A DNA stretch of 64,000 bases, taken from positions 2,680-66,679 of the forward strand of contig JABJQG010000036.1 in the NCBI GenBank assembly GCA_018663505.1, in the 5' to 3' direction. Shown here one piece after another: positions 42,283-60,779 of the stretch. The notes under the pieces are model-generated. The model ran no database searches. It was not told where the DNA came from and was given only the letters and a program-made list of their open reading frames with translations. The translations under genes and the position numbers were made by a program. The stretch is from Pseudobdellovibrionaceae bacterium (lineage in GTDB: Bacteria; Bdellovibrionota; Bdellovibrionia; Bdellovibrionales; UBA1609). The first letter of the stretch is position 1; every line of letters begins with the position of its first letter.

Positions 42283-43437
42283 CTACAATTCAAAATCAGT
42301 AAAATCTTCTTTGGAAATTTCATTTTTAATTGCGCCAACCAGGTAAGAACTAATTTCCGCTTCTTGTGGTGCTACTTGAACATTATCACTTTTTAACCAA
42401 GCACCCATCCAAGGCAAAGGGTCACTTTTACTACCAAATATAGGCTCAAGATTAATTGATTTCATTCTTAGATCCGTAATATACTCCACATAGTCATTAA
42501 CAATATCCACATTAAGACCAATCATTGAACCATCTTTAAATAAATACTTCGCCCAATCCTTTTCTTGCTGAGCCGCCTCTTTAAACATAGCTATAACTTC
42601 ATCTTCACACTCATCAGCTATATCAATCATCTCAGGATCATCTTTGCCTGTGGCAAAAATCTTTAATATTTTTTGTGTTCCTGCCAAGTGCAGGGCTTCA
42701 TCCCGAGCAATTAACTTAATGATTTTTGCATTCCCCTCCATGAGAGCACGTTCTGCAAATGCAAAGGAACAGGCAAAACTCACATAAAAACGAACCCCCT
42801 CTACTATGTTCACAGATGCTAAACACAAATAAAGAGCTTTTTTAAGTTCAGACATGGATACAATTACTTTTTCTCCATTAATGGTGTGCTCGCCAGCCCC
42901 TAATAAGGAGTAGAGCTGAACCATACTTATAAGTTTATCATAATACTCTGTTACCGAGGATGCGCGTTTTTTAATTTCCTCATTAACAACGATATCTTCA
43001 AAAACCTCAGAGGGGTCTGCTAAAATATTACGAATAATATGAGTGTAACTACGACTATGTATGGTTTCATTGGCGGCCCAAGTCTCTATCCAAGTTTCAG
43101 CTTCTGGAATGGATACTATTGGTAAAAAAGCCATATTCGGCGAGCGCCCTTGAATGCTATCAAGTAAAGTCTGATATTTTAAATTACTTAAAAAAATATG
43201 CTGCTCATGATCTGTCATATTTGAAAAGTCACTACGATCCTTTGATAGGTCAACTTCTTCAGGGCGCCAAAAAAATGAAAGCTGCTTATCAATTAAATTT
43301 TCAAAAATGCGGTGCTTTTGCTGATCATAACGAGCCACATTCACATTTTCACCAAAAAACATAGGTTCTTTGAGTGCGTCTACCTGATTTTTATTAAAAG
43401 TTGTATAAGCCATATTCTTCCTCTTTTGCTTGCTCAT
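42283..43437 (-). CDS. nrdB: Ribonucleotide-diphosphate reductase class Ia beta subunit
   Basis: 384 aa. The di-iron ligand regions (E..HS..Y, ..EG..F.. and RDE.LH) resemble E. coli NrdB, and the C-terminus is an acidic tail. The gene lies 30 nt downstream of nrdA. Confidence 0.9.
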
Positions 43438-43467: not shown

Positions 43468-45843
43468 TCAGATTTTGCAAGCACCACCATCACAGCCGTC
43501 ATCTTCTTCCATTCCATGTTCATCACTGGAGCCATCTTTAGTATTATGATAATAAAGTGTTTTAATACCCAGCTTATATGCCAAGAGAAGATCACTAAGC
43601 AAGAGTTTCATAGGAACCTTTCCTTCCGGATAACGGGCTGGATCATAATTTGTGTTGGCAGAAATGGCTTGATCTACAAACTTTTGCATTACCCCAACTA
43701 ATTGCAGGTAACCTTTGTTATCTGCGATACTCCAGTTTAACTCATAATCGTCTTTTAATGACTCATAATCTGGCACAACTTGCTTTAATACACCGTCTTT
43801 GCTCGCTTTTACGCTCACAAAACCTCTTGGTGGCTCAATACCATTTGTACTATTAGACACTTGACTAGAGGTCTCACTAGGCATTAAGGCCGTGACTGTA
43901 CTATTTCTTAAACCGTGCTGCTTAATATCTGCGCGTAAGCCATCCCAATCTAAATGCAATTTTTCATCACAAATCTTATCAATTTCTTTTTTATAAGTAT
44001 CGATAGTCATTAAACCTTGTGCATATTTTGTTTCACTAAATTTATGACAAGGACCTTGTTCTTGCGCCAACTTATTGGATGCCTTTAACAACCAAAATTG
44101 CAGGGCTTCAAAGGTTCTATGAGTTAAATTCAAACCTGACCCATCAGAATACTTCGCTCCATTTTTAGCTAAATAATAAGCATAGTTAATCACACCCACA
44201 CCCAATGGTCTGCGATCCATTGAAGAACGATAGGCTGCATCTATAGGATAACTTTGATAATCCAGCAAACCATCCAAAGCGCGAACAACTAAATCGGAAA
44301 GATTTTCTAACTCATCAAGTTTATCAATGGTTCCCAAGTTAATAGCGGACAAAGTACAAAGTGCGATTTCCCCTTCTTTATCCTCTACAGAATTTAAAGG
44401 CTGTGTGGGTAAGGCAATTTCCAAACAAAGGTTACTTTGACGAATAGGAGCTACCTTAGGATCAAAAGGACCATGATCATTAGTATGATCCACATTTTGT
44501 AAATAAATTCTTCCCGTATTAGCCCTTTCTGATGCGAACAAAGAAAATAACTCTATAGCTGGTACAGATTTTTTACGAATATTCTCATCTTGTTCAAACT
44601 CTTCATAAAGACGTTTAAATTCATCTTGGTCTGCAAAAAAAGCATCGTAAAGACCAGGAACATCTGAAGGACTAAACAATGAAATATTTTTTGATTGAAT
44701 TAAACGTTCATACATTAATTTGTTAAACTGAACCCCATAATCTAGGTGACGAACACGGTTTTCGTCTACCCCTCTATTATTTTTAAGCACTAGTAAAGAT
44801 TCTACTTCTAAATGCCAAACTGGGAAAAACAATGTGGCTGCACCACCTCGTACTCCACCCTGGGAGCAGCTCTTTACAGCTGATTGAAATAATTTATAAA
44901 ATGGTATACAGCCTGTGTGAAAAGCCTCTCCACCTCTAATGGGAGACCCTACGGCTCTAATTTTTCCAGCATTTACGCCAATACCTGCTCGTTGACTCAC
45001 ATACTTCACAATGGAAGATGCTGTGGCATTAATTGAATCTAAGGAATCTCCACATTCAATTAATACACAAGAGCTAAACTGACGGGTTCTTGTGCGAACT
45101 CCTGCCATAATGGGAGTTGGTAGTGATATTTTAAAAGTAGATGTGGCATCATAAAAACGTTTTACATAACCCATACGTGTTTCTTTAGGGTATTTTGCAA
45201 ACAAAGTAGCGGCAATCATCATATATAAAAACTGCGGACTTTCAAAAATTTCACCGGTAACACGGTTTTGAACTAGGTACTTACCTTCAAGTTGTTTAAT
45301 GCCAGCGTAACTAAAACTGAGATCGCGACTGTGATCTAAATATTTATCTAAATCAATAAACTCTGCTTGTGTATAAAATTCTAAAATTTCAGAATCATAC
45401 CACTCAAGGTCCACCAAACGTTTTATATGATTATACAAAGACGGAGGAGCAAATTGCCCAAAGGCTCTTTTTCTTAAATGGAAAACAGTTAAACGTGCAG
45501 AAAGATATTGATAATTAGGATAGCTTTCTGAAATTAGATCAGCAGCAGCTTTAATAATTGTTTCATGGATATCATAAGTTTTAATACCGTCAAAAAACTG
45601 AATTTTAGATTTAAGTTCCACTTCAGATACAGAAACATTATCAAGACCTTCAGCAGCCCACGCAATAACCTTATGTATTTTTTCTAGATTAAGAGGCTCC
45701 TTTTCGCCATTTCTTTTAACTGCATAAATAAGCTCTTTACTTTTATGTAATGAAGCACTTTCTGAAATAACTTTGTCAACTGAAGCCCCCTGCGCGCCAT
45801 TATCTCTTAACTCATCTTTGACTTTTACTCTTTCAATTTCCAT
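43468..45843 (-). CDS. nrdA: Ribonucleotide-diphosphate reductase class Ia alpha subunit
   Basis: 791 aa with an ATP-cone (VKRNGEKEPLNLEKI), the active-site regions (SNLCLEI, PSETSS) and an E. coli-like C-terminus ..CDGGACKI. Confidence 0.93.
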   Translation of the reverse strand: MEIERVKVKDELRDNGAQGASVDKVISESASLHKSKELIYAVKRNGEKEPLNLEKIHKVIAWAAEGLDNVSVSEVELKSKIQFFDGIKTYDIHETIIKAAADLISESYPNYQYLSARLTVFHLRKRAFGQFAPPSLYNHIKRLVDLEWYDSEILEFYTQAEFIDLDKYLDHSRDLSFSYAGIKQLEGKYLVQNRVTGEIFESPQFLYMMIAATLFAKYPKETRMGYVKRFYDATSTFKISLPTPIMAGVRTRTRQFSSCVLIECGDSLDSINATASSIVKYVSQRAGIGVNAGKIRAVGSPIRGGEAFHTGCIPFYKLFQSAVKSCSQGGVRGGAATLFFPVWHLEVESLLVLKNNRGVDENRVRHLDYGVQFNKLMYERLIQSKNISLFSPSDVPGLYDAFFADQDEFKRLYEEFEQDENIRKKSVPAIELFSLFASERANTGRIYLQNVDHTNDHGPFDPKVAPIRQSNLCLEIALPTQPLNSVEDKEGEIALCTLSAINLGTIDKLDELENLSDLVVRALDGLLDYQSYPIDAAYRSSMDRRPLGVGVINYAYYLAKNGAKYSDGSGLNLTHRTFEALQFWLLKASNKLAQEQGPCHKFSETKYAQGLMTIDTYKKEIDKICDEKLHLDWDGLRADIKQHGLRNSTVTALMPSETSSQVSNSTNGIEPPRGFVSVKASKDGVLKQVVPDYESLKDDYELNWSIADNKGYLQLVGVMQKFVDQAISANTNYDPARYPEGKVPMKLLLSDLLLAYKLGIKTLYYHNTKDGSSDEHGMEEDDGCDGGACKI

Positions 45844-46293
45844 TCTTTTTTCCCTCTTAATTTAGCACTTTTCAGTGATCAAATTTCAATTTTGAGAAAA
45901 AGAAACCACTTTATGGTTACCCATAAACAAAGAATTCCTTTTCTTAAAGTAACAGCAAAGCCATTTGCTGCATCTTTTTTCTATGATTTTACTCGTGCAA
46001 ACACTCATCCGAAGAGTCATCGTGTTGATAGGACATAGCCTAGCGATCTCAACTTAATTTCGTCAATAAGAAGAAGTTGCGTCACCAAAATAAAGTATTT
46101 TTTTTCTCTAATCCAATCTATTTAATTCTCAAATCAAAATTAGACTGCCGATTTTATCAGCTGCTTAATTATGTAACTGTATGGATATAAAAACTGAATA
46201 TAAATTAAACAGCACAATAATCGTACATTTAATAAACTCTATTCATAAATTAATTAAGAAAATACCGGAGGGTTATTTAAGATTATAAATCTA

Positions 46294-46866
46294 TTAATTA
46301 ATGAGTGAAGACTCAATGTAAAGGTAATGATGGTCATTGTCTTTAATAGCTTCAAAATAAATACCTTCATTGAGATGAAACTCAAAACTACGATCTGTAG
46401 TAAAGCTAATGATCATTCCTAAATTATTAAATTGGCTTGTGACAATGTCCCCATATATATTAATAAATTCAATACCCTGGCCTGTGGTTCTTAGTTCGTT
46501 CGATAGCCTTTTGCTAGTATCTTTGGACAAGCCATAGTTAATACTATTTTTAGCTCTTTTTGATCTTGATTTATTACGAATAATTTTAGGAGCCCAGTAA
46601 ACAAATGGAACTGATGTTGCTCCAAGTGCTTCTAAGTGAGTAAATACAATAGACATTCCATACATGGATGACTTGGAAACCTTCACTTTACCTTTTGCTA
46701 ATTTTATTTTAACATTTTCTTCCTGAATATTTTTATCTCCCTCACTAAATAAAACTGAATTCCAGTAAGGTAAGTCAGCGAAGACCCAATGTTCATAATC
46801 ACTTGCCCAGCAAAATTGAATTTGTAATGATAATATAATTGTCAAAAAAAGCAGTTTAGTTTTCAT
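46294..46866 (-). CDS. Exported protein, paralogue-family member (full-length type), last gene of the nine-gene operon
   Basis: I prefer the internal Met (MKTKLLFLTIILSLQIQFCWA) at 46866 over the ORF-track start at 46956. It shares HWVFADLPYWNSVLFSEGD and EFINIYGDIVTSQFNNLGMIISF...YLYIES with ORFs 51629, 52231 and 52839. Confidence 0.6.
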   Translation of the reverse strand: MKTKLLFLTIILSLQIQFCWASDYEHWVFADLPYWNSVLFSEGDKNIQEENVKIKLAKGKVKVSKSSMYGMSIVFTHLEALGATSVPFVYWAPKIIRNKSRSKRAKNSINYGLSKDTSKRLSNELRTTGQGIEFINIYGDIVTSQFNNLGMIISFTTDRSFEFHLNEGIYFEAIKDNDHHYLYIESSLIN

Positions 46867-47440
46867 AACTATCCTCTGTTTTACTGTAAATAAATTTAAT
46901 GATTGCCACAGGAGGTTTATTTTTTTCAATGAGAATAAATTGGTTGGGATTTTCATTAGAGCGTCGAAATTGATATTTTGGAGTACTAAAACTTGTTATC
47001 TGTGCCGACTTATCAAATCTTATGACCTGGACGCTGCCAAACTGATTAATAAAATAATAAGACTCTTCCCATCTCACTAGTTCTTGGTTCCATTTGTTTT
47101 TGATTTTCTCAATGAGTTCATTGAGTACTTTATTTTCCAATTGTTTGTGTTTAAGTTCATCATAATCGGCATACATAGTATGCCAAGCTCCTAAGAAAAC
47201 AATATTGGCAAACAAACTATCACCGTGACCCTTGTAATTTTCAAGATCCTCGATTGTTTTAATGTAACTCTGGTTGGGACTGTTAAGAAGCTGAAATATA
47301 TAAGCTGATGGAATTGGGATTTCAAGAACCTCTAACTCTTTAGAATAAGAAAGCATTGAAAGTATAATTAACGTAAATGTGATAAGCAATTTCATATATA
47401 TCCGTACATTGTTTAGGTTAATTCTTAGAATTTTTTTCAT
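46856..47440 (-). CDS. Exported protein sharing the C-terminal module of the paralogue family
   Basis: 194 aa. The likely true start is MKLLITFTLIILSMLSYS at 47395. The C-terminal YFINQFGSVQVIRFDKSAQITSF...FILIEKNK aligns with the family module. Confidence 0.55.
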   Translation of the reverse strand: MKKILRINLNNVRIYMKLLITFTLIILSMLSYSKELEVLEIPIPSAYIFQLLNSPNQSYIKTIEDLENYKGHGDSLFANIVFLGAWHTMYADYDELKHKQLENKVLNELIEKIKNKWNQELVRWEESYYFINQFGSVQVIRFDKSAQITSFSTPKYQFRRSNENPNQFILIEKNKPPVAIIKFIYSKTEDSYEN

Positions 47441-48788
47441 GACTTGCTAATGCCTCTAAAGTTGTAGTTAACTGAGTAAATGGTTTAAAAAGATCATCAC
47501 TGATAAATTGAGAAAATTCATCTTCATTAGAGAGAAGGTCATTATATAAAATTACATACGTGGGGTGATCTTGAGATATAACAGTACTTAGAAACTGGGA
47601 AAACTTATGGTCAGTACTGTAGGAATTTGAATCCAATTCTGCTTTTAATACTTCAGCTGCATTTTTAAGCCCCTCAATATTTAAAGTAAATACTGATTTC
47701 TGCCCAGGGTACAAAGATATAATACCTACTTTTTGTACTCTACCATTCAATTCTAAGCGTATATAATCACTTACCGAAGTAATGACTCTTCTTTCACCAT
47801 TTTCTAAAATAACCGTTGCTAATAAATCTTGTTCCGATTTCCAGGAGCTAAGGTATGGAGAATTGCGAGAGTCATTAAACAACTCAGTACTTAAGCCAAC
47901 AATCTGTGCCCCTATTGACAAACTATTTCCTGTTCCATGAGGAATTATACTTGCTGTGGCAGTGGGCCGGGTTTCCAAAGGGCTGTAAAATTCAACACCA
48001 TTAAATTTAATAATTTCATTTTCATAGTCATAGGAGTAAGATCTTTTTTTTCCACCAAGCATAACATCCAGTCCACTCTTGATATCTCGCGCGCCAACAA
48101 CATGCATAGTTATATTACTCACCTTTTGAAATGTTCTTGTACTTAATGAGGAAAACAACCCCACCATCTGATCGTTTTTTTCATCTAAGCTTACACTTCC
48201 ACCAGAAATTCCGAATCCACCAACACCTATAGCAATGATTTCATTTTGAACATCAGGGCGTTTTATCGATTGACTATTTAAATTCTGTATTTTCAACGTG
48301 GTTGCCAAAAAGTTATTATGACTGCCCGACAGGTATGCAGAACCGTAAGCTTCAGTTTCTTTTTGGGGCAATACCAAATCTGTATCAAGATTTGCCTTTT
48401 TTATCCCACGACAGTCTTTGCTGTCCATCCCCTTAAGTAAAGCTGTTTCTGTACCCCAGTCACGGCCAATAATCATAACAGGTACGGTTTTATGTTTTTT
48501 ACTTGTTAAAAATACGCTTGTGTCCCCAATGGGTTTTAACCCTAGAGTATGATCTGCTGTTATATAATAACAATCATCGCTTTTAATATTTTTATAATTA
48601 AATTTTGAAATATCCAACAAAGTGGCAGAAGCTTGTTCTAAAGTGCCTCCGGACTTACTATTATAAGCTGATGTTAAATTTGTTAATGAAAATATATTTT
48701 TAGGATACATCTTTTTAGAATACAATTCTCTGGCAAATAACGAGGAAAACATTCCTAATAAAACTATTAATAAAACGAGTGATTTCAT
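47418..48788 (-). CDS. Exported protein with an N-terminal trypsin-like (S1/Trypsin_2-type) serine protease signature
   Basis: 456 aa with a signal peptide. ITADH (His), then ETALLK about 35 residues later (in the position of D-[IL]-A-L-L-K), then GFGISGGSV (G-x-S-G-G) about 115 residues after the His. The C-terminal ~250 aa are unassigned. Confidence 0.45.
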   Translation of the reverse strand: MKSLVLLIVLLGMFSSLFARELYSKKMYPKNIFSLTNLTSAYNSKSGGTLEQASATLLDISKFNYKNIKSDDCYYITADHTLGLKPIGDTSVFLTSKKHKTVPVMIIGRDWGTETALLKGMDSKDCRGIKKANLDTDLVLPQKETEAYGSAYLSGSHNNFLATTLKIQNLNSQSIKRPDVQNEIIAIGVGGFGISGGSVSLDEKNDQMVGLFSSLSTRTFQKVSNITMHVVGARDIKSGLDVMLGGKKRSYSYDYENEIIKFNGVEFYSPLETRPTATASIIPHGTGNSLSIGAQIVGLSTELFNDSRNSPYLSSWKSEQDLLATVILENGERRVITSVSDYIRLELNGRVQKVGIISLYPGQKSVFTLNIEGLKNAAEVLKAELDSNSYSTDHKFSQFLSTVISQDHPTYVILYNDLLSNEDEFSQFISDDLFKPFTQLTTTLEALASHEKNSKN

Positions 48789-50050
48789 TTGTTCTCTCCA
48801 AGTAGGGTTTCTAATTTTAATAAATTTGATAACAAACTATTTGTAATAATAGATAGTTCTTTTTCTCGAGCATTGGTTACAGAAAATCTTCCATCAAGAT
48901 TTTCAAGTAAATGAATAAAACTAATATTATCTGCACTTTTATTTTTTTCTTTTAAAGAACGTAATGCCTTCTCTATATATTTAAGAACAATGTCATTATC
49001 ACTAGAAGCTTCTGTGTAACGAATTGCCGTTTTTATGTTGTATTGAATTTTATTGACCCTTAGATCCCAGTGTTGGGGTAAAAATAACTTGAGGGTAGAA
49101 ATATGAGACTTGGCCATTTTTAACTGCGCTAAAACCCTATTTGAGGCCCAATTATTAGATTTATCTTTTATGACTTGCATGGCTTTATAAGCGTGACCAA
49201 TATATAAACTAATGGGAAAACTACTACTCCAATGATCATTAATCTCTTTTAAAAATGAATCATAAGCAAGAACTTGACTTACAAGATTATACTTTTTTAT
49301 TTCAATATCTTTAACACTCATCTTGTTAGTATTTAACCGAATGTAGCTATTGCAAATTTGGATTAATTCTCGAAATGATTCAGATAAAAATGGATAATCC
49401 TTTCTAAAATCAGAAAGTTTACGACTCATAAAAACAATAGATGAGCCAATCGTATCTGGCAAAACATTATCTCTGGATAACACCATCATAGAGGGTTTCA
49501 GCTCAACATAAAGTTTCCCCATTTTTCTTGAAACTTCTCTGAAGTTTTTATTGCTAATATCGGAATTACAATAAGGGGAGTTAAAATTTGTTCTAAGCAA
49601 TCGCTCAAATTGACTCATATCGCGCACAGCAATCATACCATCTAAAAGTATACTTGTGCGACCCAAGGGCTCCTCCACAAAGCAACTTAATTCAGAAATA
49701 TCAGTAATACTTGAATGTGAGTTTAAGTAGCGCCAGTAGTGATCAATTACCAATAGCTCTAAGTTATGGAAGTACTTTAAACATTGAGTATTTGCAGAGT
49801 TTGGCTCACAAGGTTCAATTGTCGGAGTCATTAATTCAACAAACTGACTTAAATTATTCACATTTTTTAAGCAAGACTGTTTTACTGATATTCTATAATC
49901 AAGGGATTTACTTTTTTCTTCAAAACGACATTGCACTATATTTAATAGCGGTGATTCTGCTAAGGCGACACCCGTCCATATAGATACCAAAAAAACACTA
50001 ATTAATAATTTTTGCACATTATCTCCCATCCGCACAATAACGAATTCCAT
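48785..50050 (-). CDS. Hypothetical exported protein (Cys-rich N-terminal part, helical remainder)
   Basis: 421 aa ORF. Its start region overlaps the stop of the upstream gene (50019-50050), and its own stop overlaps the downstream gene's start by 4 nt (48785-48788). Leader is LLISVFLVSIWTGVALA. No motif recognised. Confidence 0.5.
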   Translation of the reverse strand: MEFVIVRMGDNVQKLLISVFLVSIWTGVALAESPLLNIVQCRFEEKSKSLDYRISVKQSCLKNVNNLSQFVELMTPTIEPCEPNSANTQCLKYFHNLELLVIDHYWRYLNSHSSITDISELSCFVEEPLGRTSILLDGMIAVRDMSQFERLLRTNFNSPYCNSDISNKNFREVSRKMGKLYVELKPSMMVLSRDNVLPDTIGSSIVFMSRKLSDFRKDYPFLSESFRELIQICNSYIRLNTNKMSVKDIEIKKYNLVSQVLAYDSFLKEINDHWSSSFPISLYIGHAYKAMQVIKDKSNNWASNRVLAQLKMAKSHISTLKLFLPQHWDLRVNKIQYNIKTAIRYTEASSDNDIVLKYIEKALRSLKEKNKSADNISFIHLLENLDGRFSVTNAREKELSIITNSLLSNLLKLETLLGENK

Positions 50051-51632
50051 TGTTCATCACTAAATCAATAAATGTTTGCAAGTTTTTCATAGACTTAGTT
50101 CTATCTTGTACATGCTTACACTCTTTACCCAAAATCTTTAATGCACTTGTATTCCCATCCTTACACATATTTTCTAGTCTATTAATAGAACGAGATCGTG
50201 GTTTTCTCTCAAGAGATTTAAAGTAAACATTATCTGTTGTATCAACCAACTCAATCAGCTGACTGGGCCCATTAATCTTAATAATTGGGTATTGTTCACC
50301 TACCCATTTTAAAGGGATGTTCAAGTAGTTTGAAATGGTCAAACGAGTTTCTGTATTTAATTTTTCTTCAAAGCGTAAATGTGTCTTAATAGAGAAAACT
50401 AGGTCACGAAGAGTTTTGTCTGAATATTCATCTGTATAATAATACTTTTTCAGATGATTCCTTTGAGATTCATCCAAGCTTGCCACCGTGCCGTCACATT
50501 TTTTTAGTGTAAGCTCAGCTTTGTCTAAGCTAAACAAGTCTAAGTAATTTTGAATATTAACATGAGTTAACTCTTCTGATAACTCCAGCCACTTGTCTGT
50601 GATATTTTGATATTTTTGTTTAAGCTCAGGTGCATTTATATTTAGTGGATCAAAAAAACTTAAAGCAGGCTCACTAATCAAGACTAATTCTTCCTCAATG
50701 AGCTCTATGTATTCTTTTAAATTTTCAGACTGGGTGGAACTAAGATCTGCAGTGATTATCTCTTTATTTGCATAATAATCGGTCAAGGTATTAAGTTCTT
50801 TTTTAGCAATCCAAGTTTGAGGATAGTAAAATTCACCGATGTATTTCAAGTCACTGTGTTTTTTTCTTTTCTTAAGTTCATTAGGCAAATGGTACCTTAG
50901 TTTTTTGAGCATATGAAAAGGCTGTACTGGGGTAAAATTCTTTCTACCATGCTCTTTGATATCTAGAAAAGAAAGGGTTTCTTTAAGGGGAGATAAACAA
51001 TTAAATGATAATTTATCATAGTCATCAGTCTCACCTCCGTATTTACCATATACTTTGTCTAAGTGTTGTATAAGCTGATTTAGTTTTACTTTGGAAAGTT
51101 GGAAACGTAAACTCCATATATTACGTGCAAAGGAATATCCAAGCTCCATACCAAAAAAGAGATCCACAACACTGACACCCGTTCGGTAATACCCTGCCAT
51201 TCCTGGTTCATTGGGGTTAAAGTTATACACACGGTCACCAACCCTTACAGCACCATGCCCCCAGTAGGTATTAAACCCTTCTTTTTTCTTACTATGATAG
51301 TTCAATTGTTCCATGAAATAAAATTCAACCGTATTTTTCTCGTAATCAAAATATTTCGTAGTTTCAAAAGGTAAAAAATTAATTTTAAGGTCAATTAACT
51401 CGTGTGTATTTTTACTGATCTTAATATTATTTTTGGCTATGGGAATAGCTACTTTTTGTGAAAGGGTTAAAGCCCCCTTATAGTGTTTTAGCTCATATCT
51501 CACATTTGTCGTTTCATCTATTATGTACTGCTTCAGGCTGTTATCTGATTGGATAAAACCCGTAATGAAACCAGGTATAGCAAAGACATTTGTGCTTAAA
51601 AAAATGAAAAGTATTAGACTTAATATTTTCAT
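50019..51632 (-). CDS. Exported protein with a permuted-papain (PPPDE/DUF862-like) His...Cys signature
   Basis: 537 aa with a signal peptide. YWGHGAVRVGDRVYNFN, then about 75 residues later DDYDKLSFNCLSPLKETLSFL. This resembles the PPPDE pattern H-x-G/A-[IV]-x-V-x-G-x-x-Y-x-F ... Y-x-[LIV]-x-x-x-NC-x-x-F/L. Confidence 0.4.
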   Translation of the reverse strand: MKILSLILFIFLSTNVFAIPGFITGFIQSDNSLKQYIIDETTNVRYELKHYKGALTLSQKVAIPIAKNNIKISKNTHELIDLKINFLPFETTKYFDYEKNTVEFYFMEQLNYHSKKKEGFNTYWGHGAVRVGDRVYNFNPNEPGMAGYYRTGVSVVDLFFGMELGYSFARNIWSLRFQLSKVKLNQLIQHLDKVYGKYGGETDDYDKLSFNCLSPLKETLSFLDIKEHGRKNFTPVQPFHMLKKLRYHLPNELKKRKKHSDLKYIGEFYYPQTWIAKKELNTLTDYYANKEIITADLSSTQSENLKEYIELIEEELVLISEPALSFFDPLNINAPELKQKYQNITDKWLELSEELTHVNIQNYLDLFSLDKAELTLKKCDGTVASLDESQRNHLKKYYYTDEYSDKTLRDLVFSIKTHLRFEEKLNTETRLTISNYLNIPLKWVGEQYPIIKINGPSQLIELVDTTDNVYFKSLERKPRSRSINRLENMCKDGNTSALKILGKECKHVQDRTKSMKNLQTFIDLVMNNGIRYCADGR

Positions 51633-52234
51633 TGCACTTCCTTGGGTATGAAATTAGGCTCAACGTAAAGGTGAATACTTTCATTATCACCTTGTTTCGC
51701 GACAAAGTAGCTTCCATTATCATGGTCATAAAGTTCAAATTTCATATTATTACAGATGAATGACTGTAACATCCCCATGTTATTGAACTCTGCAGACTGT
51801 ATTTCACCAAATAGATTTATAAAGCTAGCCCCATCATCATTAGATCTAAGATCTAAATTTAAATTTTTCGTAAGAGACCTCATTCTATAATTAATACTGT
51901 TAATATTTGACTTAATCTCACTACTTTTAACCGGTCCTTGAATAGCTGAAGGACCAATGATTGCCCATTTATATATGATAGGCTCGGCTGCTCCAAGAGC
52001 AAGAACTGTCCCAACACCAACCAAACTAGATATCCCAGCTGCTTTACTATGTCGACTATAGCTAAGTGAATTAGTTTTCGCCTCATGCATTCTTTGCAGA
52101 GTTCCATCTCCAACACCATAAAGGACGTTTTGCCAAGTAGGCATATTCCCTACTATCCAAAAAGCACATGACGACTGAGCAATGAGAATAGACATTCCAA
52201 TAGTTAAACCTTTTAAAATAATCTGACGTTTCAT
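51629..52234 (-). CDS. Exported protein, paralogue-family member (full-length type)
   Basis: 201 aa with AFWIVGNMPTWQNVLYGVGD, a Gly/Ala-rich hydrophobic stretch, and SFINLFGEIQSAEFNNMGMLQSF...YFVA...LYVEPNFIPKE. Confidence 0.6.
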   Translation of the reverse strand: MKRQIILKGLTIGMSILIAQSSCAFWIVGNMPTWQNVLYGVGDGTLQRMHEAKTNSLSYSRHSKAAGISSLVGVGTVLALGAAEPIIYKWAIIGPSAIQGPVKSSEIKSNINSINYRMRSLTKNLNLDLRSNDDGASFINLFGEIQSAEFNNMGMLQSFICNNMKFELYDHDNGSYFVAKQGDNESIHLYVEPNFIPKEVQ

Positions 52235-52842
52235 TTCACATCCTCACTTTCGGGAATGAAATTTGGCTCTATAAATAACTCAGTGGCATTATGATCACCA
52301 TTTTGACTGATAAAATAATGTCCTTTATTGTCATTAACAAGTTTAAAATTGACCAAGGTAGCAGTTGTAAACGACTGTAGTATTCCAAAATAATTAAATT
52401 CAACAGATTGAATTTCACCAAACTGATTGATGAAAGATTTGCCGTTAATATTTTCCTTAAGTTCTGAATTTAAGTGTTTAGTGGTCACTCCAATTTCATA
52501 TTCCAATTGATCATTATCTGAGCTTACATCACTGCTCTTTATAGGTGTCTGGAAGGCCACCATCCCACCTAATGCAAATCTAAGAATTTCTATTGTTATT
52601 CGCCCCTCAGAGAATGCTCCCCCAACAAGTATAGCTGATGCCCCCATGGCCTTTGTATTAAAATAAAAGTTTGATGTTTTAATTTTTTGTAAATAAGCTT
52701 TTTGAATTCCCTGATCTCCAGCTCCGTAGAGAACGTTTTGCCAAGAGGGCATATTCCCAACGATCCAAATCGCATATGTGGAATGAGTAGTAATAATCGA
52801 CAATGCAATAGCTAAACATCTTAAAATAAACTGGTGTTTCAT
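52231..52842 (-). CDS. Exported protein, paralogue-family member (full-length type)
   Basis: 203 aa with AIWIVGNMPSWQNVLYGAGD and SFINQFGEIQSVEFNYFGILQSF...YFIS...LFIEPNFIPE. Confidence 0.6.
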   Translation of the reverse strand: MKHQFILRCLAIALSIITTHSTYAIWIVGNMPSWQNVLYGAGDQGIQKAYLQKIKTSNFYFNTKAMGASAILVGGAFSEGRITIEILRFALGGMVAFQTPIKSSDVSSDNDQLEYEIGVTTKHLNSELKENINGKSFINQFGEIQSVEFNYFGILQSFTTATLVNFKLVNDNKGHYFISQNGDHNATELFIEPNFIPESEDVK

Positions 52843-53429
52843 TTCACATCCCCATCTACCGTAATAAAATTGGGTTCTATAAAGAGTTCTATAGGATCTT
52901 CATTTTTTAAAGTACTAATGAAGTAATATCCTTGATCATTATTTACTAGTGTAAATTTTGTGTTATTATTGGTACTAAATGTTTTTATCATTCCAAGTTT
53001 ATTCATATGAGCAGATTTTATTTGTCCAAATCTACTTATAAAGGAACGTCCATCCACATTGCTGTTAAGTTCTTCATTCAATTTAGCTACGGTCACGTTT
53101 ACAGCAGAATCGATACCTCTTTGTGATGAAATATGTGTAATAACAGAACCTACAATTTTCAAAGGAATTCCTACTTGTGCAAAGTCCTTTAGCCACACAG
53201 AGTCAGTATCCACCAGTAATACACCAATCCCGGTGCCTGATTTTATGGAACGTTGACCTCCAAAGCTTGCTTTATACGCTGCATGAGACTCTTTAACCAT
53301 CTCGTCGCCTTCACCATAAACTATATTGTTCCACGTTGGCATATCACCCATAATTGTATTCGCGTGAGCACTTGGGGTAACAATATTGATTAAGCAACTT
53401 GTATATAAAAATGTGATTATGAACTTCAT
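52839..53429 (-). CDS. Exported protein, paralogue-family member (full-length type)
   Basis: 196 aa with NTIMGDMPTWNNIVYGEGD and SFISRFGQIKSAHMNKLGMIKTF...YFIS...LFIEPNFIT. Confidence 0.6.
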   Translation of the reverse strand: MKFIITFLYTSCLINIVTPSAHANTIMGDMPTWNNIVYGEGDEMVKESHAAYKASFGGQRSIKSGTGIGVLLVDTDSVWLKDFAQVGIPLKIVGSVITHISSQRGIDSAVNVTVAKLNEELNSNVDGRSFISRFGQIKSAHMNKLGMIKTFSTNNNTKFTLVNNDQGYYFISTLKNEDPIELFIEPNFITVDGDVK

Positions 53430-53992
53430 AAATTTTCTAGCTCCTCAATAAATTGAACATCAGCAATATACTGGCCGCCTGGTGCTAGTACTTTAAAAAC
53501 GTAAGAATCAAGGTCAACTCTTTTAAGAACGTACTTAGAAGTAATTAGTCTTGTTACGTCACCAAACTTATTAAAACGCACAGTAACAATTGCACCAAGT
53601 GCATTTAATATAGAGTAAGAATCTGCATTATTCTTTAGAGCCGAATTTATATCTTTAGTGAGTTCTAGTTTAATTTCAGCTAGGTTATTGTGTAAAACGT
53701 GATCAAGCTTAAGTCTCTTGTAGGGCTTAAACCACATATTATCATTAGCAATAGGAATAATTTCACCTAGTTTAAATTCATTAATTTTTTCACGCTTTTC
53801 ATCAAACTCTACAAGCTTTTGCTTATAAAATTCTTTATATTTATCAAAGGTTTTTAATCCTAGCGTATTTACTATTGGGACAAGAATAAGCTGAACCCTT
53901 TTTTCTTCTTGTGCGTACATACCAGCTTTAAAAAACTGACAAAACACAAAAGTGAAAGCTAGGAGTATTTGCAATGAGAATTTACTGAACAC
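53426..53992 (-). CDS. Exported protein sharing the C-terminal module of the paralogue family; first gene of the nine-gene operon
   Basis: 188 aa with a leader (LQILLAFTFVFCQFF). The C-terminal SILNALGAIVTVRFNKFGDVTRLI...YVFKV...VQFIEE aligns with the family module. Confidence 0.55.
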   Translation of the reverse strand: MFSKFSLQILLAFTFVFCQFFKAGMYAQEEKRVQLILVPIVNTLGLKTFDKYKEFYKQKLVEFDEKREKINEFKLGEIIPIANDNMWFKPYKRLKLDHVLHNNLAEIKLELTKDINSALKNNADSYSILNALGAIVTVRFNKFGDVTRLITSKYVLKRVDLDSYVFKVLAPGGQYIADVQFIEELENL

Positions 53993-54251
53993 GAGTGAAA
54001 ATCCTTTAAGTTAATTGATTAATTACTAATTTCTTATGCAATATTGAAGCTCATTATAGGGGGAGAAATACAAATAGCTACTTAACTGTCCTAAAACAGT
54101 TAAGTAAATGATATCACACATAAAATCGTATTTTTTTTGCCACCATCAAGAAGAGCACAGAGAGTCTTGAAAAAATTATACTGGAACTTTTTTCTAAGTT
54201 AATGAACATCTACATTACAAGCATGAAATTAGTTCAAAATAAAACTTTAAA

Positions 54252-57155
54252 TCATAGAATTTTGGTAGTTAGACGTTTGCTCAGGCTGTATCCGGAATCT
54301 TGGTTTATAACTAAATCTGAAATGCTTAATTCATTTTCGATAATTTTTTTTAGACGACTAATATTAACGTAGAGTGTTTGATCATGTTGATCTGGATCAT
54401 AATTTTGATCCCATATTTTTTGCACCAAGCTTTCTTTATCAATAAAGTTACCCTTACACTGCGAGAGAGTATAAATTAAATCAAAAAGAAGTTTCTTTTT
54501 TTCTAGAGATACAATGTTTAAGTTTTGATTAGAAATTAACATAATCGAAGGAATAATATATAAGTCGGAGTCTCCAAGAACAAAATTTAAGAATATATCT
54601 TTACTCATTGAAAACCCAAGCTTTTCAAATACTGAATTAAATATATTACTGAATAAAATGGAAAACTGCTTATCAGAATTAAGAAATATTTTTCTACAAG
54701 TGCTCAAATCAATTGAAACCTTATCCCAATTATTTGACTTATAGTTATGAATTATAGAAGAAAGTGAAAACAATAGCTTACATATTCTAAAACCAAGATT
54801 ATCTAAATTATTTTCTACTTTTAGGAATTCATGAATTCTCTCCTCTGCATTTTTAAAATTCGCATTAAAGCAATCCTGTAAACAAATTATTGCTTGTGTG
54901 TTCCAATATAACCAAGGTGATTCAATATTTAAATGAGCATTTTTTAGATCAAAGGTATTTGATTCTGTTAGCAATAATTTGGATAATTGAGAGTATAGAG
55001 CATACTGATCAAGCTCTAATTTTGAAATATTAGATGGTAACTGTGGTTGATTTATCGATAAATCAAACAATTGTTTTCTGGCTACAGTTAATCCATCGAT
55101 GCTTTCTAGCTTACTAACTACACCTGAGACATAAAGCAGTTGTTCAATTAAGTGTTTTTCCCTAAGGTCCTGTATGTTTTTTAACTCATATTTCAGAACC
55201 TCTGCCTTTTCCTTTAAAGCCGATTTTTTTAATAAAAGAAAATCTTGCTCCATTTTCAAACGTGAAATCCTCCATCTAAAGGGACTCTTTGCTCTATTAC
55301 GAAGTAATCCCTCTGCTGATTCTAAGCTGTTGGTACTTTTACTATACTCACCCATAGCTAAATAAATTTCGGAGATATAAATCTTGTGAGCCACTTGTTG
55401 ATTTTTACTTCCATGCAATAATGTTTCAGGCTTTGCCTGCTCTAGTACATCTATGGCAGAAATTAATTGATTGCTTGTGTATAGACGATTAGATTCATAA
55501 AATACAACTGAGACTTTTAAACTAGGATTGGAACGTTTCTTAAGCAACTCTTTAAGTTCCTTCAAAAGAGTACTAGCCGTATTTTCTTTACCTAATTCAT
55601 CTAAAGCTATACACATATTATATATGGTACGTTGTTGATCCAGTATTTGTAAATTTAACTTTGAAAGGTCATAGGCCTGTTTTGAGTATTCATAGCTTTT
55701 TTTGAAGTCAGCCACCCAAAATAAATCTATGCCAAGTTGATAAAGATGGTTATATTTAGTTTTGTACTGTGTCTTGTTATCAAATGTTGAAACAGCACTA
55801 ATTCTTGCTGCACAAGCCTTTCGGTAATCATGATTCTCCCTATCGAGCAGGGCTTTCCAATGAAGAAAATCAAAGTTTGAAATCTTATCATTTTCAGAGA
55901 TCATAGACTCAAACAATTTAAAATTTTCTTTAAATTTATCTATATCTTTTGATTGATAGGAAAGCTGACATACTGTGTTTATAAAAGGTATTGTCATTTC
56001 AGAGTTCAAACCATTTTCTTCAAGAATATTAAGATAACAATTTGCTCGTTCAAAATTTTCTTGCTCAGTGCTCAATTCAATATCTATAACTATAAGTTCT
56101 TTAATTTGATATTTCTTACTTACTAAAGTATCATTAAGAATATTAAATTCAGAATATTTTCCATTCTTTAGAAGCTCTCTGGCGTATTCTACTATCAGTC
56201 CTTTGTTTATTATTTTACCCATTTTTAGTAAATAGAATATCGATTCTTTATCATCAAGTACATCTACTAATTCATCGAACACTCCATCTAAAAATTCATT
56301 TTTTAGATTTTTAGGAAAATATTCAAGTAAACTTGGAGACAGATATACCTTATTGTCATTTTGCATTAAAAATTTACAACTTAATAGAGTTTTACACTTC
56401 TCTTTTGTTGAATCCGCTAATTTCTGATAATGACTCTCTGGTATAGCCCCCCAATGATAGAATTTAATCATTACATCTTTAGTATCTTCGGTTAGATTTT
56501 GGTCAAGCCACTCGTCAAAATTATTTTGAATATTATTAATATTGTCATTTGAAGCTATAATCAGAATTAAACCAGGATTTTTAATATCAGATGGTATTGC
56601 TTTTTGTGATTTTAATTTTTGCACAAGCATTCTTGAATCTATGGTTGAAATTCCGTTTAGATGTTGAAACTGTATGTGATGTAAGTTCTGACTCTTAAAA
56701 CTTGGTTTAGATATGGATGTAATTATTAGCTTTGATTTTTTGAAATATCTATTACATGCCTCTATTAAACTTTCAATTGCGGAAAGTTCAACATAATCAA
56801 TACCATCAATTAAAATTAAGTATTTCTTTGACTCCCAGTAATACACAATTTCATGAATGGTTTCCTCTAAGCCTAATTCATTGACTATTTTTTGTTTAGG
56901 CTTGGGAAGACTTAAGGATAAGGTTTTAAAAAAATCATCGTAATTGGTAAACTCATTTAAGTTTAAGAATAATGGTTTTAATTTGTTTTTTTCAATATAT
57001 TGATTGCATACTTTATAGCAAAATTCAGATTTACCAATTCCATGTTCACCATACACATCAATAACAGAACAGTCATTAATGATATGATTAAAATTACTAA
57101 GCTCATTATTATAGCCAGTAAAATATTTAGTTTCAGGGGGGATCCTTGTATACAT
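54252..57155 (-). CDS. STAND-type P-loop NTPase with a helical-repeat (TPR-like) body and a C-terminal OmpR/PhoB-type winged-helix DNA-binding domain
   Basis: 967 aa. The N-terminal YFTGYNNEL resembles the FVGRE-EL lead-in of STAND ATPases. Walker A is GEHGIGKS and Walker B is YLILIDGID. A long helical region follows. The C-terminal ESLVQKIWDQNYDPDQHDQTLYVNISRLKKIIE...GYSL is a trans_reg_C signature. Confidence 0.7.
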   Translation of the reverse strand: MYTRIPPETKYFTGYNNELSNFNHIINDCSVIDVYGEHGIGKSEFCYKVCNQYIEKNKLKPLFLNLNEFTNYDDFFKTLSLSLPKPKQKIVNELGLEETIHEIVYYWESKKYLILIDGIDYVELSAIESLIEACNRYFKKSKLIITSISKPSFKSQNLHHIQFQHLNGISTIDSRMLVQKLKSQKAIPSDIKNPGLILIIASNDNINNIQNNFDEWLDQNLTEDTKDVMIKFYHWGAIPESHYQKLADSTKEKCKTLLSCKFLMQNDNKVYLSPSLLEYFPKNLKNEFLDGVFDELVDVLDDKESIFYLLKMGKIINKGLIVEYARELLKNGKYSEFNILNDTLVSKKYQIKELIVIDIELSTEQENFERANCYLNILEENGLNSEMTIPFINTVCQLSYQSKDIDKFKENFKLFESMISENDKISNFDFLHWKALLDRENHDYRKACAARISAVSTFDNKTQYKTKYNHLYQLGIDLFWVADFKKSYEYSKQAYDLSKLNLQILDQQRTIYNMCIALDELGKENTASTLLKELKELLKKRSNPSLKVSVVFYESNRLYTSNQLISAIDVLEQAKPETLLHGSKNQQVAHKIYISEIYLAMGEYSKSTNSLESAEGLLRNRAKSPFRWRISRLKMEQDFLLLKKSALKEKAEVLKYELKNIQDLREKHLIEQLLYVSGVVSKLESIDGLTVARKQLFDLSINQPQLPSNISKLELDQYALYSQLSKLLLTESNTFDLKNAHLNIESPWLYWNTQAIICLQDCFNANFKNAEERIHEFLKVENNLDNLGFRICKLLFSLSSIIHNYKSNNWDKVSIDLSTCRKIFLNSDKQFSILFSNIFNSVFEKLGFSMSKDIFLNFVLGDSDLYIIPSIMLISNQNLNIVSLEKKKLLFDLIYTLSQCKGNFIDKESLVQKIWDQNYDPDQHDQTLYVNISRLKKIIENELSISDLVINQDSGYSLSKRLTTKIL

Positions 57156-57235: not shown

Positions 57236-57667
57236 TTAATCACATTCTTCATTGAGAGCTACTAATATTTCCACTCCTGCCATTAGAATTTCATTTATTA
57301 CCGCCTCTCTGTTAGGTGCTTCCTCCAACTCACCTAACTGTTCTTCTATTTCGCAATATGCCACTTTAACATGCCCAATGCTCTTTCTTACTCGCACATC
57401 AAGCAAAGATTGGCTGGCATCAACAACTCGTATAGCATTTCTTACTTTTTTATTAATCTTCGTAAACACTTCAAACCTTACTCGATCACTAACAGAATCT
57501 TTGGCAATGGGTATTACGCATTTTAGAGCCTCAAGAGCATCAATTACCTGATCTCCATAAGTGGTTTTAGTCATACATAAGTTGATTCCTTGATGCTTAT
57601 AATTATAGTTTCCAGAAAAGGCGTTGAGGCTAGCAAGTGTAATTATCATTATAGTTAAAAATTTCAT
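57236..57667 (-). CDS. Hypothetical small secreted helical protein
   Basis: 143 aa with a signal peptide (MKFLTIMIITLASLNAFS|G). No motif recognised. Confidence 0.5.
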   Translation of the reverse strand: MKFLTIMIITLASLNAFSGNYNYKHQGINLCMTKTTYGDQVIDALEALKCVIPIAKDSVSDRVRFEVFTKINKKVRNAIRVVDASQSLLDVRVRKSIGHVKVAYCEIEEQLGELEEAPNREAVINEILMAGVEILVALNEECD

Positions 57668-57722: not shown

Positions 57723-58733
57723 TTAGTAGTTTTGGTAAAGTTGCTTAGCTTTATCCATAGCTTCTGAAAAGTACATTAAATCGTATTGTCCATCCTCCCC
57801 AAGATTTTCAGAAATGGCATTTATTTTTAGGTCATAAATAGAGAACATTTCTTGAGCATCCTCTCCAGCACAGGCATCCTCTTGTTTACACGACAACATT
57901 TTTCTAGCAAATTTATTTACTTTAAGTTTCAAACCATGAGTGAGCTCAAGACGGTTGGCATCAGAAAAATAATTCTGAACAACCTCAAGTGCGCTCAATA
58001 ACTCTTCACCAATGAGTAAATTATCTCTACCACGACCTGGAGGAAGAATAATACGACCACGGTTATCTACAGGCGCTTCCCATTTAAGAACAATCTCTCT
58101 AACCTCGGGCTTATCATCTGAAGCATAAATTTGTAAATTATCAGGGCAATCATTGATATCAATTGAGTAAGGTCTAGTATGCGATCCCTCACTAAGCGTT
58201 ACTGTCTTTTTAATTTGGCCATCATTAACATATACAGCAAGGCTAGCTTTTTCATCTCTAAAAAGACCAAACTCGTTGGTGGTTCCCCAAACAGTCATTG
58301 ATTTTAAGATGTAACCCTCATATTGATTAGTTGCCTTATCCATTTTAAATATCAAATCACCCTCTTTAAACTTAACTCCATCTGAATGAGACGATGTGGT
58401 TGGACCATCATGCTTACCTCTCATTCCTTTAAATGCACGAGGATCATTAAAGCCATTGTTTTTATAACCGTTTGAATTTGTCTTTACGTCATCCTTGTAA
58501 AAAGTGATCCTCTCTGTATAACTATTTCCAATCCATTGGCTAAAACAATTACTGTTTCTATTAAGTAAGCATGTATTTGGGGTGACACCCAGCTGCTGAG
58601 CAAGCCTTCTATTATATTTTTGTTGAGACTCTTTTGGACTGCGATCATGTGAGAATTTATTCTTTGCGTGAATTGGCAGAATAAACCCGATGGTTGCAAT
58701 TCCATTTATTATAATTTTTAAAGTTTTTTTCAT
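57723..58733 (-). CDS. Hypothetical exported protein
   Basis: I prefer the internal Met MKKTLKIIINGIATIGFILPIHA (58733) over the ORF-track start at 58793. That gives about 336 aa. No motif recognised. Confidence 0.5.
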   Translation of the reverse strand: MKKTLKIIINGIATIGFILPIHAKNKFSHDRSPKESQQKYNRRLAQQLGVTPNTCLLNRNSNCFSQWIGNSYTERITFYKDDVKTNSNGYKNNGFNDPRAFKGMRGKHDGPTTSSHSDGVKFKEGDLIFKMDKATNQYEGYILKSMTVWGTTNEFGLFRDEKASLAVYVNDGQIKKTVTLSEGSHTRPYSIDINDCPDNLQIYASDDKPEVREIVLKWEAPVDNRGRIILPPGRGRDNLLIGEELLSALEVVQNYFSDANRLELTHGLKLKVNKFARKMLSCKQEDACAGEDAQEMFSIYDLKINAISENLGEDGQYDLMYFSEAMDKAKQLYQNY

Positions 58734-58965
58734 TCTATCTCCTTTTAGATAATTTCTTAAATGCAAACTAAGTGCAGAGCGTGTTTCAAACAACTAAAGC
58801 TTTCTAAAATTTCTAAGTAAATGTATTCATTGATGTATTTAAAGAATAATAAATTTAAAAATTTAACTTACTAGTAAAATATATTACTCATGCTTGAGGT
58901 CTTTAAAAATTAGAATTTTAATAACGAGCTGACTCAGATTAAAATTTTTAACAAACGAATGATAA

Positions 58966-60342: not shown

Positions 60343-60770
60343 ATTTCAACCTTCAAAATAACTCTAACTATTTTTTTAATGCTATCGTTATAGTTACTGT
60401 CAGTGATTATACCAATGGCTTTTTTATTTTTGGATATATTTCTAATAATTGCCAATTCACTTTTTAAAATCTTGGGAGGTGCTGATCCTGTTTGTAACTT
60501 TTGTTTTCCCCAATACTCCTCCCAATCCAATTGATCCATGCCAAGTATTTTATCAATAATCACTGGGAAGGCATCGTGATTTGGCATAAATACCTTAATG
60601 GAGCTGCCGTTATCCCAAAAGTGATTCTTTTTTAGAATTATGTTCTTTGCTTTTTTAATGACTAACTCACTTTGCAAATTCTTTGGATGCACGAGGAAAT
60701 ATAAATGCTTTCCAGACACAGATACAGAACTTAAAATACTTAATAAAATCACAATAATCATATACTTCAT
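60339..60770 (-). CDS. Small periplasmic protein, possibly PBP-like (phosphate-binding-protein-like fold)
   Basis: 143 aa with a signal peptide. The pattern ..KKNHFWDNGSSIKVF...AIGIITDS.. loosely resembles short PBP_like_2 domains. It overlaps the HK start by 4 nt. Confidence 0.3.
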   Translation of the reverse strand: MKYMIIVILLSILSSVSVSGKHLYFLVHPKNLQSELVIKKAKNIILKKNHFWDNGSSIKVFMPNHDAFPVIIDKILGMDQLDWEEYWGKQKLQTGSAPPKILKSELAIIRNISKNKKAIGIITDSNYNDSIKKIVRVILKVEI

Positions 60771-60779
60771 ATATCTTTC

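Follow-up and report, generated by a model that had tools for sequence, protein, structure and literature searches.

Two described systems offer the closest comparisons for the locus reported here. In the binary toxin YaxAB, a globular head is made of the two chain ends, and the middle makes up an arm with a membrane-active hydrophobic tip; YaxA and YaxB are all-alpha proteins of 340-410 amino acids (aa) with a five-helix-bundle head (PMC5935710). TasA fibres are built by N-terminal donor-strand exchange, and TapA nucleates them via strand complementation (PMC9674648, PMC10151520). The locus that we compare with them lies at positions 46294-53992 of a 64,000-nucleotide (nt) stretch of contig JABJQG010000036.1 from a Pseudobdellovibrionaceae bacterium (assembly GCA_018663505.1), hereafter called the window. 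It encodes six small paralogous proteins that form a real and previously undescribed family, which is very rare and narrowly distributed: an exhaustive HMMER scan of 1.84 billion representative proteins (E<=0.001) returned 12 proteins, namely the six of the window and six others (P0007-P0012).

The six-member family

The locus consists of nine tightly packed minus-strand open reading frames (ORFs), labelled A-I, six of which encode members of the family:

A, 53426..53992, minus strand: short-type member, 188 aa, GTG start, with a signal-like N-terminal segment, a degenerate head and the tail SILNALGAIVTVRFNKFGDVTRL
B, 52839..53429, minus strand: long-type member, 196 aa, with the head NTIMGDMPTWNNIVYGEGD directly after the predicted signal-peptide cleavage site AHA|N
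C, 52231..52842, minus strand: long-type member, 203 aa; the mature form modelled with AlphaFold2 corresponds to 52234-52770
D, 51629..52234, minus strand: long-type member, 201 aa
E, 50019..51632, minus strand: predicted exported protein, 537 aa, possibly a permuted NlpC/P60 (Lnb_N/DUF4105-like) Cys-His enzyme
F, 48785..50050, minus strand: predicted exported helical protein, 421 aa, with a counterpart in the UBA1609 cluster described below
G, 47418..48788, minus strand: predicted exported trypsin-like (HtrA-like) serine peptidase, 456 aa
H, 46856..47440, minus strand: short-type member, 194 aa from 47440; gene callers place the start at 47395 (179 aa) or give a 166-aa form
I, 46294..46956, minus strand: long-type member, 220 aa from 46956, with a probable start at 46866 (190 aa); head HWVFADLPYWNSVLFSEGD

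An initial annotation of the window had proposed that six of these products are paralogues sharing a C-terminal tail module, four of them also sharing an N-terminal head. All six ORFs and every motif that it quoted were found in place on the minus strand, and both BLASTP and an independent external hidden Markov model (HMM) bore out a paralogue family of six. When the nine proteins were compared pairwise by BLASTP, B, C, D and I matched one another nearly full length at 1e-14 to 1e-57, A matched H over residues 7-182 (5e-7), and A matched C (2e-6) and D (4e-5) with the tail alone aligned. The external HMM was built exclusively from five long members of other organisms and was run, with Z = 1e6, against 168 six-frame segments of the window. 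It recovered B, C and D at about 1e-27 (B 3e-27), I at 6e-21 and H at 5e-7, with A as the sixth and last match (14 bits, E 1.4); no segment besides the six members scored. H also matched an external short-type HMM at 1.6e-14. Because A reached 14 bits alone against the external HMM, it is the weakest member, and its membership rests on the BLAST matches of A to H and to C, on its position and on its size.

The initial annotation had named two grounds on which the family would have to be abandoned, an insignificant alignment and a match to a known family; the alignment proved highly significant, and no known family was matched. That the resemblance is fortuitous and the ORFs non-functional is virtually excluded, the weak external-HMM score of A being the single point in favour of such a reading. 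Values of 1e-57 between paralogues and of 1e-27 against an independent profile speak against it, as do homologues at 22-31% identity in syntenic clusters of a different organism, intact frames in six of six members, Shine-Dalgarno-like sites before most starts and a confident AlphaFold2 model. Taken together, BLASTP, the exhaustive scan, synteny and the external HMM refute chance similarity.

Neither the head nor the tail corresponds to a described domain in Pfam, NCBIfam, PHROGs, PADLOC, PDB sequences or PDB and BFVD folds, as had been supposed from the letters. At the level of sequence, searches of Pfam-A, NCBIfam, PHROGs, PADLOC and PDB sequences with the family gave a best E of 0.0026, and no match was above cut-off or consistent across members; library matches of the IraD and GroEL type were below or marginal at the cut-offs and were discarded. 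A tblastn search of plasmid and phage collections with C gave no match, and a word-indexed homologue search with six- and 13-sequence alignments of the family and with an alignment of E returned the window's own proteins alone. All homologues that carry any annotation are named 'hypothetical protein'. Since the short member of UBA1609 was missed by the first profile and found through synteny alone, further divergent members may exist.

Paired subtypes and predicted structure

The six members fall into two subtypes, long (B, C, D and I) and short (A and H). Long members carry the head consensus (F/W)-(I/L/V)-x-G-(D/N)-x-P-x-(W/L)-x-x-(I/V/L)-x-x-(G/S)-x-G-(D/x), a middle segment some 40 residues long and a C-terminal (I/V/L)-x-P, mostly IEPNF. 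In short members the head is degenerate, the middle is shorter and no Pro follows the last strand; across loci this set comprises A, H, P0012, the C-terminal half of P0007, a 221-aa protein of UBA1609 and a 185-aa protein of locus L012. The combination of a canonical head with a Pro after the last strand ((I/V/L)-x-P) was found in eight of nine long members and in none of six short ones. The initial annotation was mistaken in giving the short members the tail only: A and H retain a degenerate head at the homologous place, with a Pro invariant in all six members (P32 in the alignment). Its tandem array exists, with four genes (A-B-C-D) where it had counted three; H and I follow the three large genes.

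The two subtypes are found side by side in different loci. The order G-like gene, short member, long member recurs in the window, in L008 (the UBA1609 cluster) and in L006, where the G motif SDFIRY was recognised by eye in a C-terminal fragment upstream that gave no BLAST match, and where an extra ORF with a signal peptide follows. L012 holds a short-long pair with no G coding sequence in the 411 nt upstream, on a short contig. In L007 a G-like gene, whose His, Asp and Ser are canonical, precedes P0007, a 359-aa fusion of a long and a short member. Genetic evidence thus consists of short-long pairs in four loci and one natural fusion. Because of the P0007 fusion and the conserved pairing (a Rosetta-stone argument), the long and short subtypes probably work together, probably 1:1. 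The link to a G-like gene is the most conserved feature across the window, L008, L006 and L007.

Adjacent genes of the locus overlap by 4 nt (ATGA) at A/B, B/C, C/D, D/E and F/G, and by 32 nt at E/F. Shine-Dalgarno-like GGAG/GAGGA sequences lie 5' of most genes, being weak or absent for F and for the H start at 47395. On the strength of these overlaps and ribosome-binding sites, A-I is, as judged from sequence, a single co-transcribed nine-gene minus-strand operon. A GAGGA 10 nt upstream of 46866 provides I with a better ribosome-binding site there, and independent gene calls on identical metagenome contigs gave 179 or 166 aa for H and 190 aa for I; I most likely begins at 46866 (190 aa) and H at 47395 (179 aa).

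Each of the nine products (9/9) has one N-terminal hydrophobic signal-like segment followed by AxA-like sites, from which we infer Sec export of all nine. The head of the family members starts 0-20 residues past this segment, and the mature family proteins would measure about 165-180 aa. No lipobox L-(A/S)-(G/A)-C was found at the signal-peptide end in the family; D alone has a Cys near the cleavage site (AQSSC|A), but without Leu at -3, and the others have no Cys there. A lipoprotein nature, or lipidation of the head, was rejected on the absence of a lipobox and of a conserved nucleophile.

Mature C was modelled with AlphaFold2 on 13 sequences (mean predicted local distance difference test score, pLDDT, 77.5; predicted template modelling score, pTM, 0.67); a run on six sequences was poor (pLDDT 49). 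The model contains a strand at residues 2-5 (WIVG), a helix at 8-14 and a helix from 20 (pLDDT about 88 to residue 30), followed in the C-terminal part by helices at 79-106 and 108-117 and by five strands between 120 and 169. The pLDDT was about 89 for residues 1-30, 89-96 for most of 90-150 and 77-83 for 151-170, and ranged from 77 to 96 across 81-170. From these values we infer that the head and tail are halves of one split alpha/beta domain, not two independent modules. In such a domain the N-terminal strand-helix head and first helix would pack onto a C-terminal tail of two helices and five strands. A variable insertion some 40 residues long would separate head and tail; Gly/Ala/Ser/Thr and hydrophobic residues abound in it, and it leads into a Lys/Arg-rich stretch.

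Averaged over all pairs, the long members share 39% identity in the head and 31% in the tail; for the middle the value is 12%. In composition the middle is constant, at 31-51% G/A/S/T, 33-42% hydrophobic and 8-18% charged residues, and a Lys/Arg/Ser-rich stretch follows directly. The initial annotation's description of this segment as Gly/Ala-rich and hydrophobic was correct as to Gly/Ala; the hydrophobicity is moderate at most, with a mean smoothed hydropathy of about 1.0-1.4 in the long members. We took as a transmembrane segment a conserved stretch of about 19 residues with a Kyte-Doolittle value >= 1.6, and on such 19-residue windows a conserved transmembrane helix in the middle was rejected.

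Foldseek found no match to the model in the PDB (best E 0.46, template modelling (TM) score 0.23) or in BFVD (best E 0.039, TM 0.20). The top weak hits were SMC heads with coiled coil, the arm of seryl-tRNA synthetase and EmrA/HlyD hairpins, which in our reading echo mere topology, that is, a globular end with an antiparallel helical arm. The predicted fold is probably new.

Predicted enzymes, putative regulator arm and host

The initial annotation had also pointed to two peptidase-like neighbours. For one of them, G, the assignment is supported: its motifs ITADH80TL, TE114TALLK and GIS195GG argue for a trypsin-like (PA clan) peptidase. His80 and Ser195 are invariant, the acid position is Glu, Glu and Asp in three homologues, and the three stand in the order His, acid, Ser. 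The UBA1609 orthologue scored 4e-5 against Pfam Trypsin_2 (24.7 bits, below the cut-off of 27.6), and the window protein and the L007 fragment did not match Trypsin_2 in Pfam. In searches of PDB sequences with a three-sequence profile, all hits at E<1 were HtrA/DegQ proteases (about 0.03), and with a two-sequence profile 11 of 12 hits at E<=10 were HtrA/DegQ. Like HtrA/DegP, G shows the His, acid, Ser motif order and a G-x-S-G-G; its ITADHTL aligns to the His motif, and its GRDW-TETALLK to HtrA GRDPKTDLAVLK. Unlike HtrA/DegP, it has no detected PDZ domain, a C-terminal half of about 220 aa that belongs to no recognised family, and Glu for Asp in two of three homologues.

For the other neighbour, E, support as a permuted NlpC/P60 Cys-His enzyme is weak, and this identity is possible, a lead and not a finding. 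Its core (about residues 100-240) carries the motifs WGHGAVRVGDRVYNF and FNC, seen as WGH126GA-RVG--YNF and FNC212. H126 and C212 are 86 residues apart and invariant in the UBA1609 orthologue (27% identity, 4e-54). Over the Cys region E scored 0.023 against Pfam Lnb_N (14.7 bits, cut-off 22.2); no further library matched it, and no PDB sequence was hit. DUF4105/Lnb, TseH and Tox-Act1 are permuted NlpC/P60 enzymes acting on lipids or lipoproteins, with a His-to-Cys spacing of 99 in Lnb and 108 in TseH and Tox-Act1 (PMC11573676, PMC12994826). A His followed by a Cys at about 85-110 residues is present in E, at the motif level only, so that E resembles Lnb (PF13387), TseH and Tox-Act1 in having a catalytic-type His before the Cys. 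It differs from Lnb in having a signal peptide alone instead of five transmembrane helices, and in its extra N- and C-terminal regions, the C-terminal one being helical and Cys-containing.

The third large protein, F, is 22% identical (3e-20) to its UBA1609 counterpart. A Synapsin_C match at residues 252-345 (22.9 bits, cut-off 22.5) was marginal and implausible and was treated as spurious; no other family in Pfam or NCBIfam matched F.

Upstream of A, on the same strand, lie an intergenic region and three further genes:

Intergenic region, 53993..54251, minus strand: upstream of A, with a promoter-like TTAACT-16-TATAAT at 54202-54175 (a consensus match, candidate)
Regulator, 54252..57155, minus strand: 967 aa, in which a STAND/AAA NTPase at the N-terminus is joined through a long helical stretch to an OmpR-type winged-helix DNA-binding domain at the C-terminus
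Two proteins, 57236-57667 (143 aa) and 57723-58793 (356 aa), minus strand: hydrophobic signal-like N-termini by eye

The regulator matched Pfam Trans_reg_C (4.5e-8), AAA_22 (3e-6) and NACHT (7e-5), and is 30% identical to its UBA1609 neighbour over the full length (1e-140). The 143-aa and 356-aa proteins, neither of which has a Pfam hit, are 37.5% (3e-30) and 32% (2e-49) identical to UBA1609 proteins that also flank the regulator there. The regulator and the 143/356-aa pair look like the sensor and regulator arm of the cluster. Between the regulator and A lies a perfect 11-nt inverted repeat, TACTTAACTGT / ACAGTTAAGTA (54079-54089 / 54096-54106, 6-nt spacer), which might serve as an operator or terminate the regulator transcript; no shared operator motif and no counterpart of the repeat was found in the promoter region of UBA1609.

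Eight genes are conserved at 22-37% identity in the metagenome-assembled genome of Bdellovibrionaceae bacterium UBA1609 (DCMZ01000017), namely the regulator, the 143-aa and 356-aa proteins, E, F, G, one short and one long member. The regulator arm is divergently oriented there (L008 277-4805). The sequence of this cluster recurs in Tara Oceans, JGI and ENA assemblies, and alignment searches of genome and metagenome contigs with E and G returned the UBA1609/Tara organism alone. Compared with UBA1609, the window has a second set of family genes upstream of E, comprising short A and long B, C and D. Downstream of the UBA1609 cluster (L008 12720-20612), we noted a Y1 transposase and small ORFs with Tox-MPTase3 and YD-shell fragments, which look like polymorphic-toxin and immunity remnants.

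The window also encodes RNase Y, a UvrD-type helicase, an acyl-CoA dehydrogenase and ETF-QO, housekeeping genes that identify it as chromosomal; its G+C content is about 35%. Among the best hits of RNase Y, 78 of 80 were Bdellovibrionales/Bdellovibrionota (38-58% identity), and among Bdellovibrionota/Bdellovibrionales bins UBA1609 has been given the status of a family-level group (PMC10469934). On these two grounds, the host is by sequence a deep-branching, uncultured, low-GC marine member of the predatory phylum Bdellovibrionota. No close genome was found among 185,579 species representatives. Five metagenome loci from different projects (L001-L005; ERZ27250242, ERZ4201032/33, ERZ23491584 and JGI 3300004278) agree with the window at every position of the six family genes (100% identity). 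Across 43468-57155 they show two single-base differences in total, one nonsynonymous difference in E and one in the regulator. They look like a clonal, widely sampled population, and a selection test based on their variation gave almost no signal.

Several other genes of the window deserve mention. NrdA (nrdA 43468-45843, nrdB 42283-43437) is 74-76% identical to proteins of Colwellia/Thalassotalea (Gammaproteobacteria) and about 70% to Lentisphaera; set against the 38-58% of RNase Y, mostly to Bdellovibrionales, this suggests that nrdAB was acquired horizontally. As a taxonomic marker nrdA was dropped as misleading, RNase Y being used in its place. ORF 37888-40392 encodes an exported protein of 834 aa with many FG-GAP/VCBS-like repeats (DxNGDGxxD and FG motifs, by eye), and 22641-24131 a bacterial serine carboxypeptidase of family S10 (Pfam 7e-25), a family that is mostly eukaryotic.

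A histidine kinase is encoded at 59305-60342, with a 143-aa and a 359-aa protein upstream (region 59305-63998). This pair shows no similarity to the 143/356-aa pair next to the regulator; paralogy was rejected and the match in size is coincidental. ORF 62961-63998 is Ser/Thr protein-kinase-like by eye. In L014, the long member P0011 (646-1293) is followed by a convergent histidine-kinase fragment sharing 33% identity with the window kinase, and this neighbour hints that a window-type kinase is also loosely linked to the family.

Possible roles and comparison with known systems

The reading that we prefer, though with low confidence, is that the family proteins form exported short-long heteromers with a membrane- or lipid-contacting insertion and that the enzymes encoded alongside process them or cooperate with them. 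A short and a long subunit would pair 1:1 outside the cytoplasm, the conserved split domain would act as the assembly scaffold, and the variable hydrophobic insertion would be the working surface, contacting membrane or lipid in the prey envelope or in the predator's own outer envelope. The protease G and the lipid-targeting-type enzyme E might mature the family proteins, for example by cutting at the basic stretch. Alternatively, both might act beside them, and the whole would be one inducible, regulator-controlled envelope-attack module. A number of observations weigh against heteromers of this kind. No homology or fold match in the libraries, the PDB or BFVD ties the family to any function, and the cluster encodes no outer-membrane secretion machinery for release from the periplasm. 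No Lys, Cys or Ser is conserved family-wide as an acylation site. AlphaFold2 was unsure in the middle (pLDDT about 50 at residues 41-80), and the packing of head on tail was read from confidence values and secondary structure alone. On the 19-residue windows, D alone among the six window members reached a transmembrane-like value (1.77), the others staying below 1.4. Finally, the UBA1609 orthologue of E does not match Lnb_N, and the score of E itself is below the Pfam threshold.

The family could instead provide immunity, an unlikely explanation in which small periplasmic paralogues bind and block secreted E and/or G, sparing the predator's own envelope; they would then resemble the periplasmic immunity proteins of NlpC/P60 effectors. 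Tandem paralogous immunity genes are common beside toxin genes, TseH-type permuted NlpC/P60 proteins are toxins, and here small, predicted exported proteins are encoded directly beside two predicted exported hydrolases, in a group whose UBA1609 locus lies near the polymorphic-toxin remnants Tox-MPTase3 and YD-shell. Six copies are nevertheless many for two single-copy enzymes, and a heteromeric machine accounts better than separate inhibitors do for two conserved subtypes that are paired and in one case fused. It is also the N-terminal head that is most conserved and the hydrophobic insertion that varies, and the pair in L012 has no G coding sequence in the upstream interval mentioned above, a weak point on so short a contig. 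In a further scheme, which we hold to be distinctly unlikely, the family proteins would be subunits of a donor-strand polymer, extracellular or periplasmic, in which the head strand of a long subunit inserts into the tail sheet of the next. Short members, their head being degenerate, would serve as cap or nucleator, G would trim the subunits, and the Cys-His enzyme E would cross-link or anchor them. The head would suit this role, being the most conserved segment and a predicted beta-strand at or near the mature N-terminus (residues 2-5, pLDDT about 89), and a canonical head co-occurs with the C-terminal (I/V/L)-x-P. The monomer model is compatible with pairing of the head strand in cis or in trans, and AlphaFold2 monomer models of donor-strand proteins usually place the strand in cis.

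Several major and minor paralogues beside processing enzymes likewise recall pilus and fibre operons, and strand assembly of TasA and TapA is a precedent for polymerisation (PMC9674648, PMC10151520). Against a donor-strand polymer, the confident helix right after the head (residues 20-30, pLDDT about 88) suggests an integrated domain and not a free strand, Pfam and NCBIfam revealed no usher, chaperone, secretin or dedicated signal peptidase in the cluster, the predicted fold is neither Ig nor jelly-roll, and Foldseek gave no pilin or TasA match. Scarcely likely, finally, is that the family proteins are adaptors of the protease that deliver substrates to G or regulate it, play no part at membranes and have a substrate-recognition loop as their middle. 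The conserved link to a G-like gene in the window, L008, L006 and L007 favours such adaptors, and the unassigned C-terminal half of G could dock partners. They have neither precedent nor homology, however, four extra copies lie upstream of E and do not adjoin G, and a small and hydrophobic middle would be unusual for a soluble recognition loop.

Carried further, short-long heteromers with a membrane-contacting insertion might constitute a class of their own among small membrane-active proteins, with two components and a new fold, directed at prey envelopes by uncultured marine predators and assisted or matured by G and E, a proposal that we consider very unlikely as it stands. If it were true, binary pore-forming toxins would have in this family a minimal counterpart that is homologous to none of the toxins known. 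If the family functions as proposed above, it would extend the little-known toolkit of marine predatory bacteria by a new fold and a new exported module of two subunits; the protease, the Cys-His enzyme and the regulator encoded with it are partners that can be tested. Metagenomes are rich in orphan families, and the present one has no bearing on any long-standing open question. Even if its function were mundane, a clean rare family is now defined, with a structural model and a conserved gene neighbourhood, and a demonstration of membrane activity or polymerisation would make it far more significant.

Like YaxAB/XaxAB of the ClyA superfamily, the family has two related exported subunits encoded side by side, whose paired action is deduced from the genes; it possibly also shares their chain topology, to judge from the model and the type of the weak Foldseek hits. 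Unlike YaxAB, its members are of about 170 aa with a predicted five-strand sheet, the arm has a pLDDT of about 50, and membrane activity is hypothetical. Measured against binary alpha pore-forming toxins, it shows co-encoded cooperating subunits, on genetic evidence, and gives no sequence or Foldseek hit to ClyA, YaxA or XaxA. Such toxins have a coiled-coil stalk and a hydrophobic foot; in the model a stalk and tip are at most hinted at, in the region with a pLDDT of about 50. With TasA/TapA and with chaperone-usher pilins it has in common a conserved predicted strand that lies at the N-terminus of the mature protein, close behind the signal-peptide cleavage site, an operon holding both major and minor paralogues, and a variant strand in the minor component. 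It differs from them in a predicted alpha/beta acceptor in place of a jelly-roll or Ig fold; polymerisation is hypothetical, there is no homology, and no SipW-type peptidase, usher or chaperone family matched any of the nine operon proteins or their neighbours. The family therefore belongs to neither YaxAB/XaxAB nor TasA/TapA, whose defining folds and assembly genes it does not have. By analogy, it would work most like a miniature binary toxin pair of the YaxAB/XaxAB kind or a strand-complementation pair of the TasA/TapA type.

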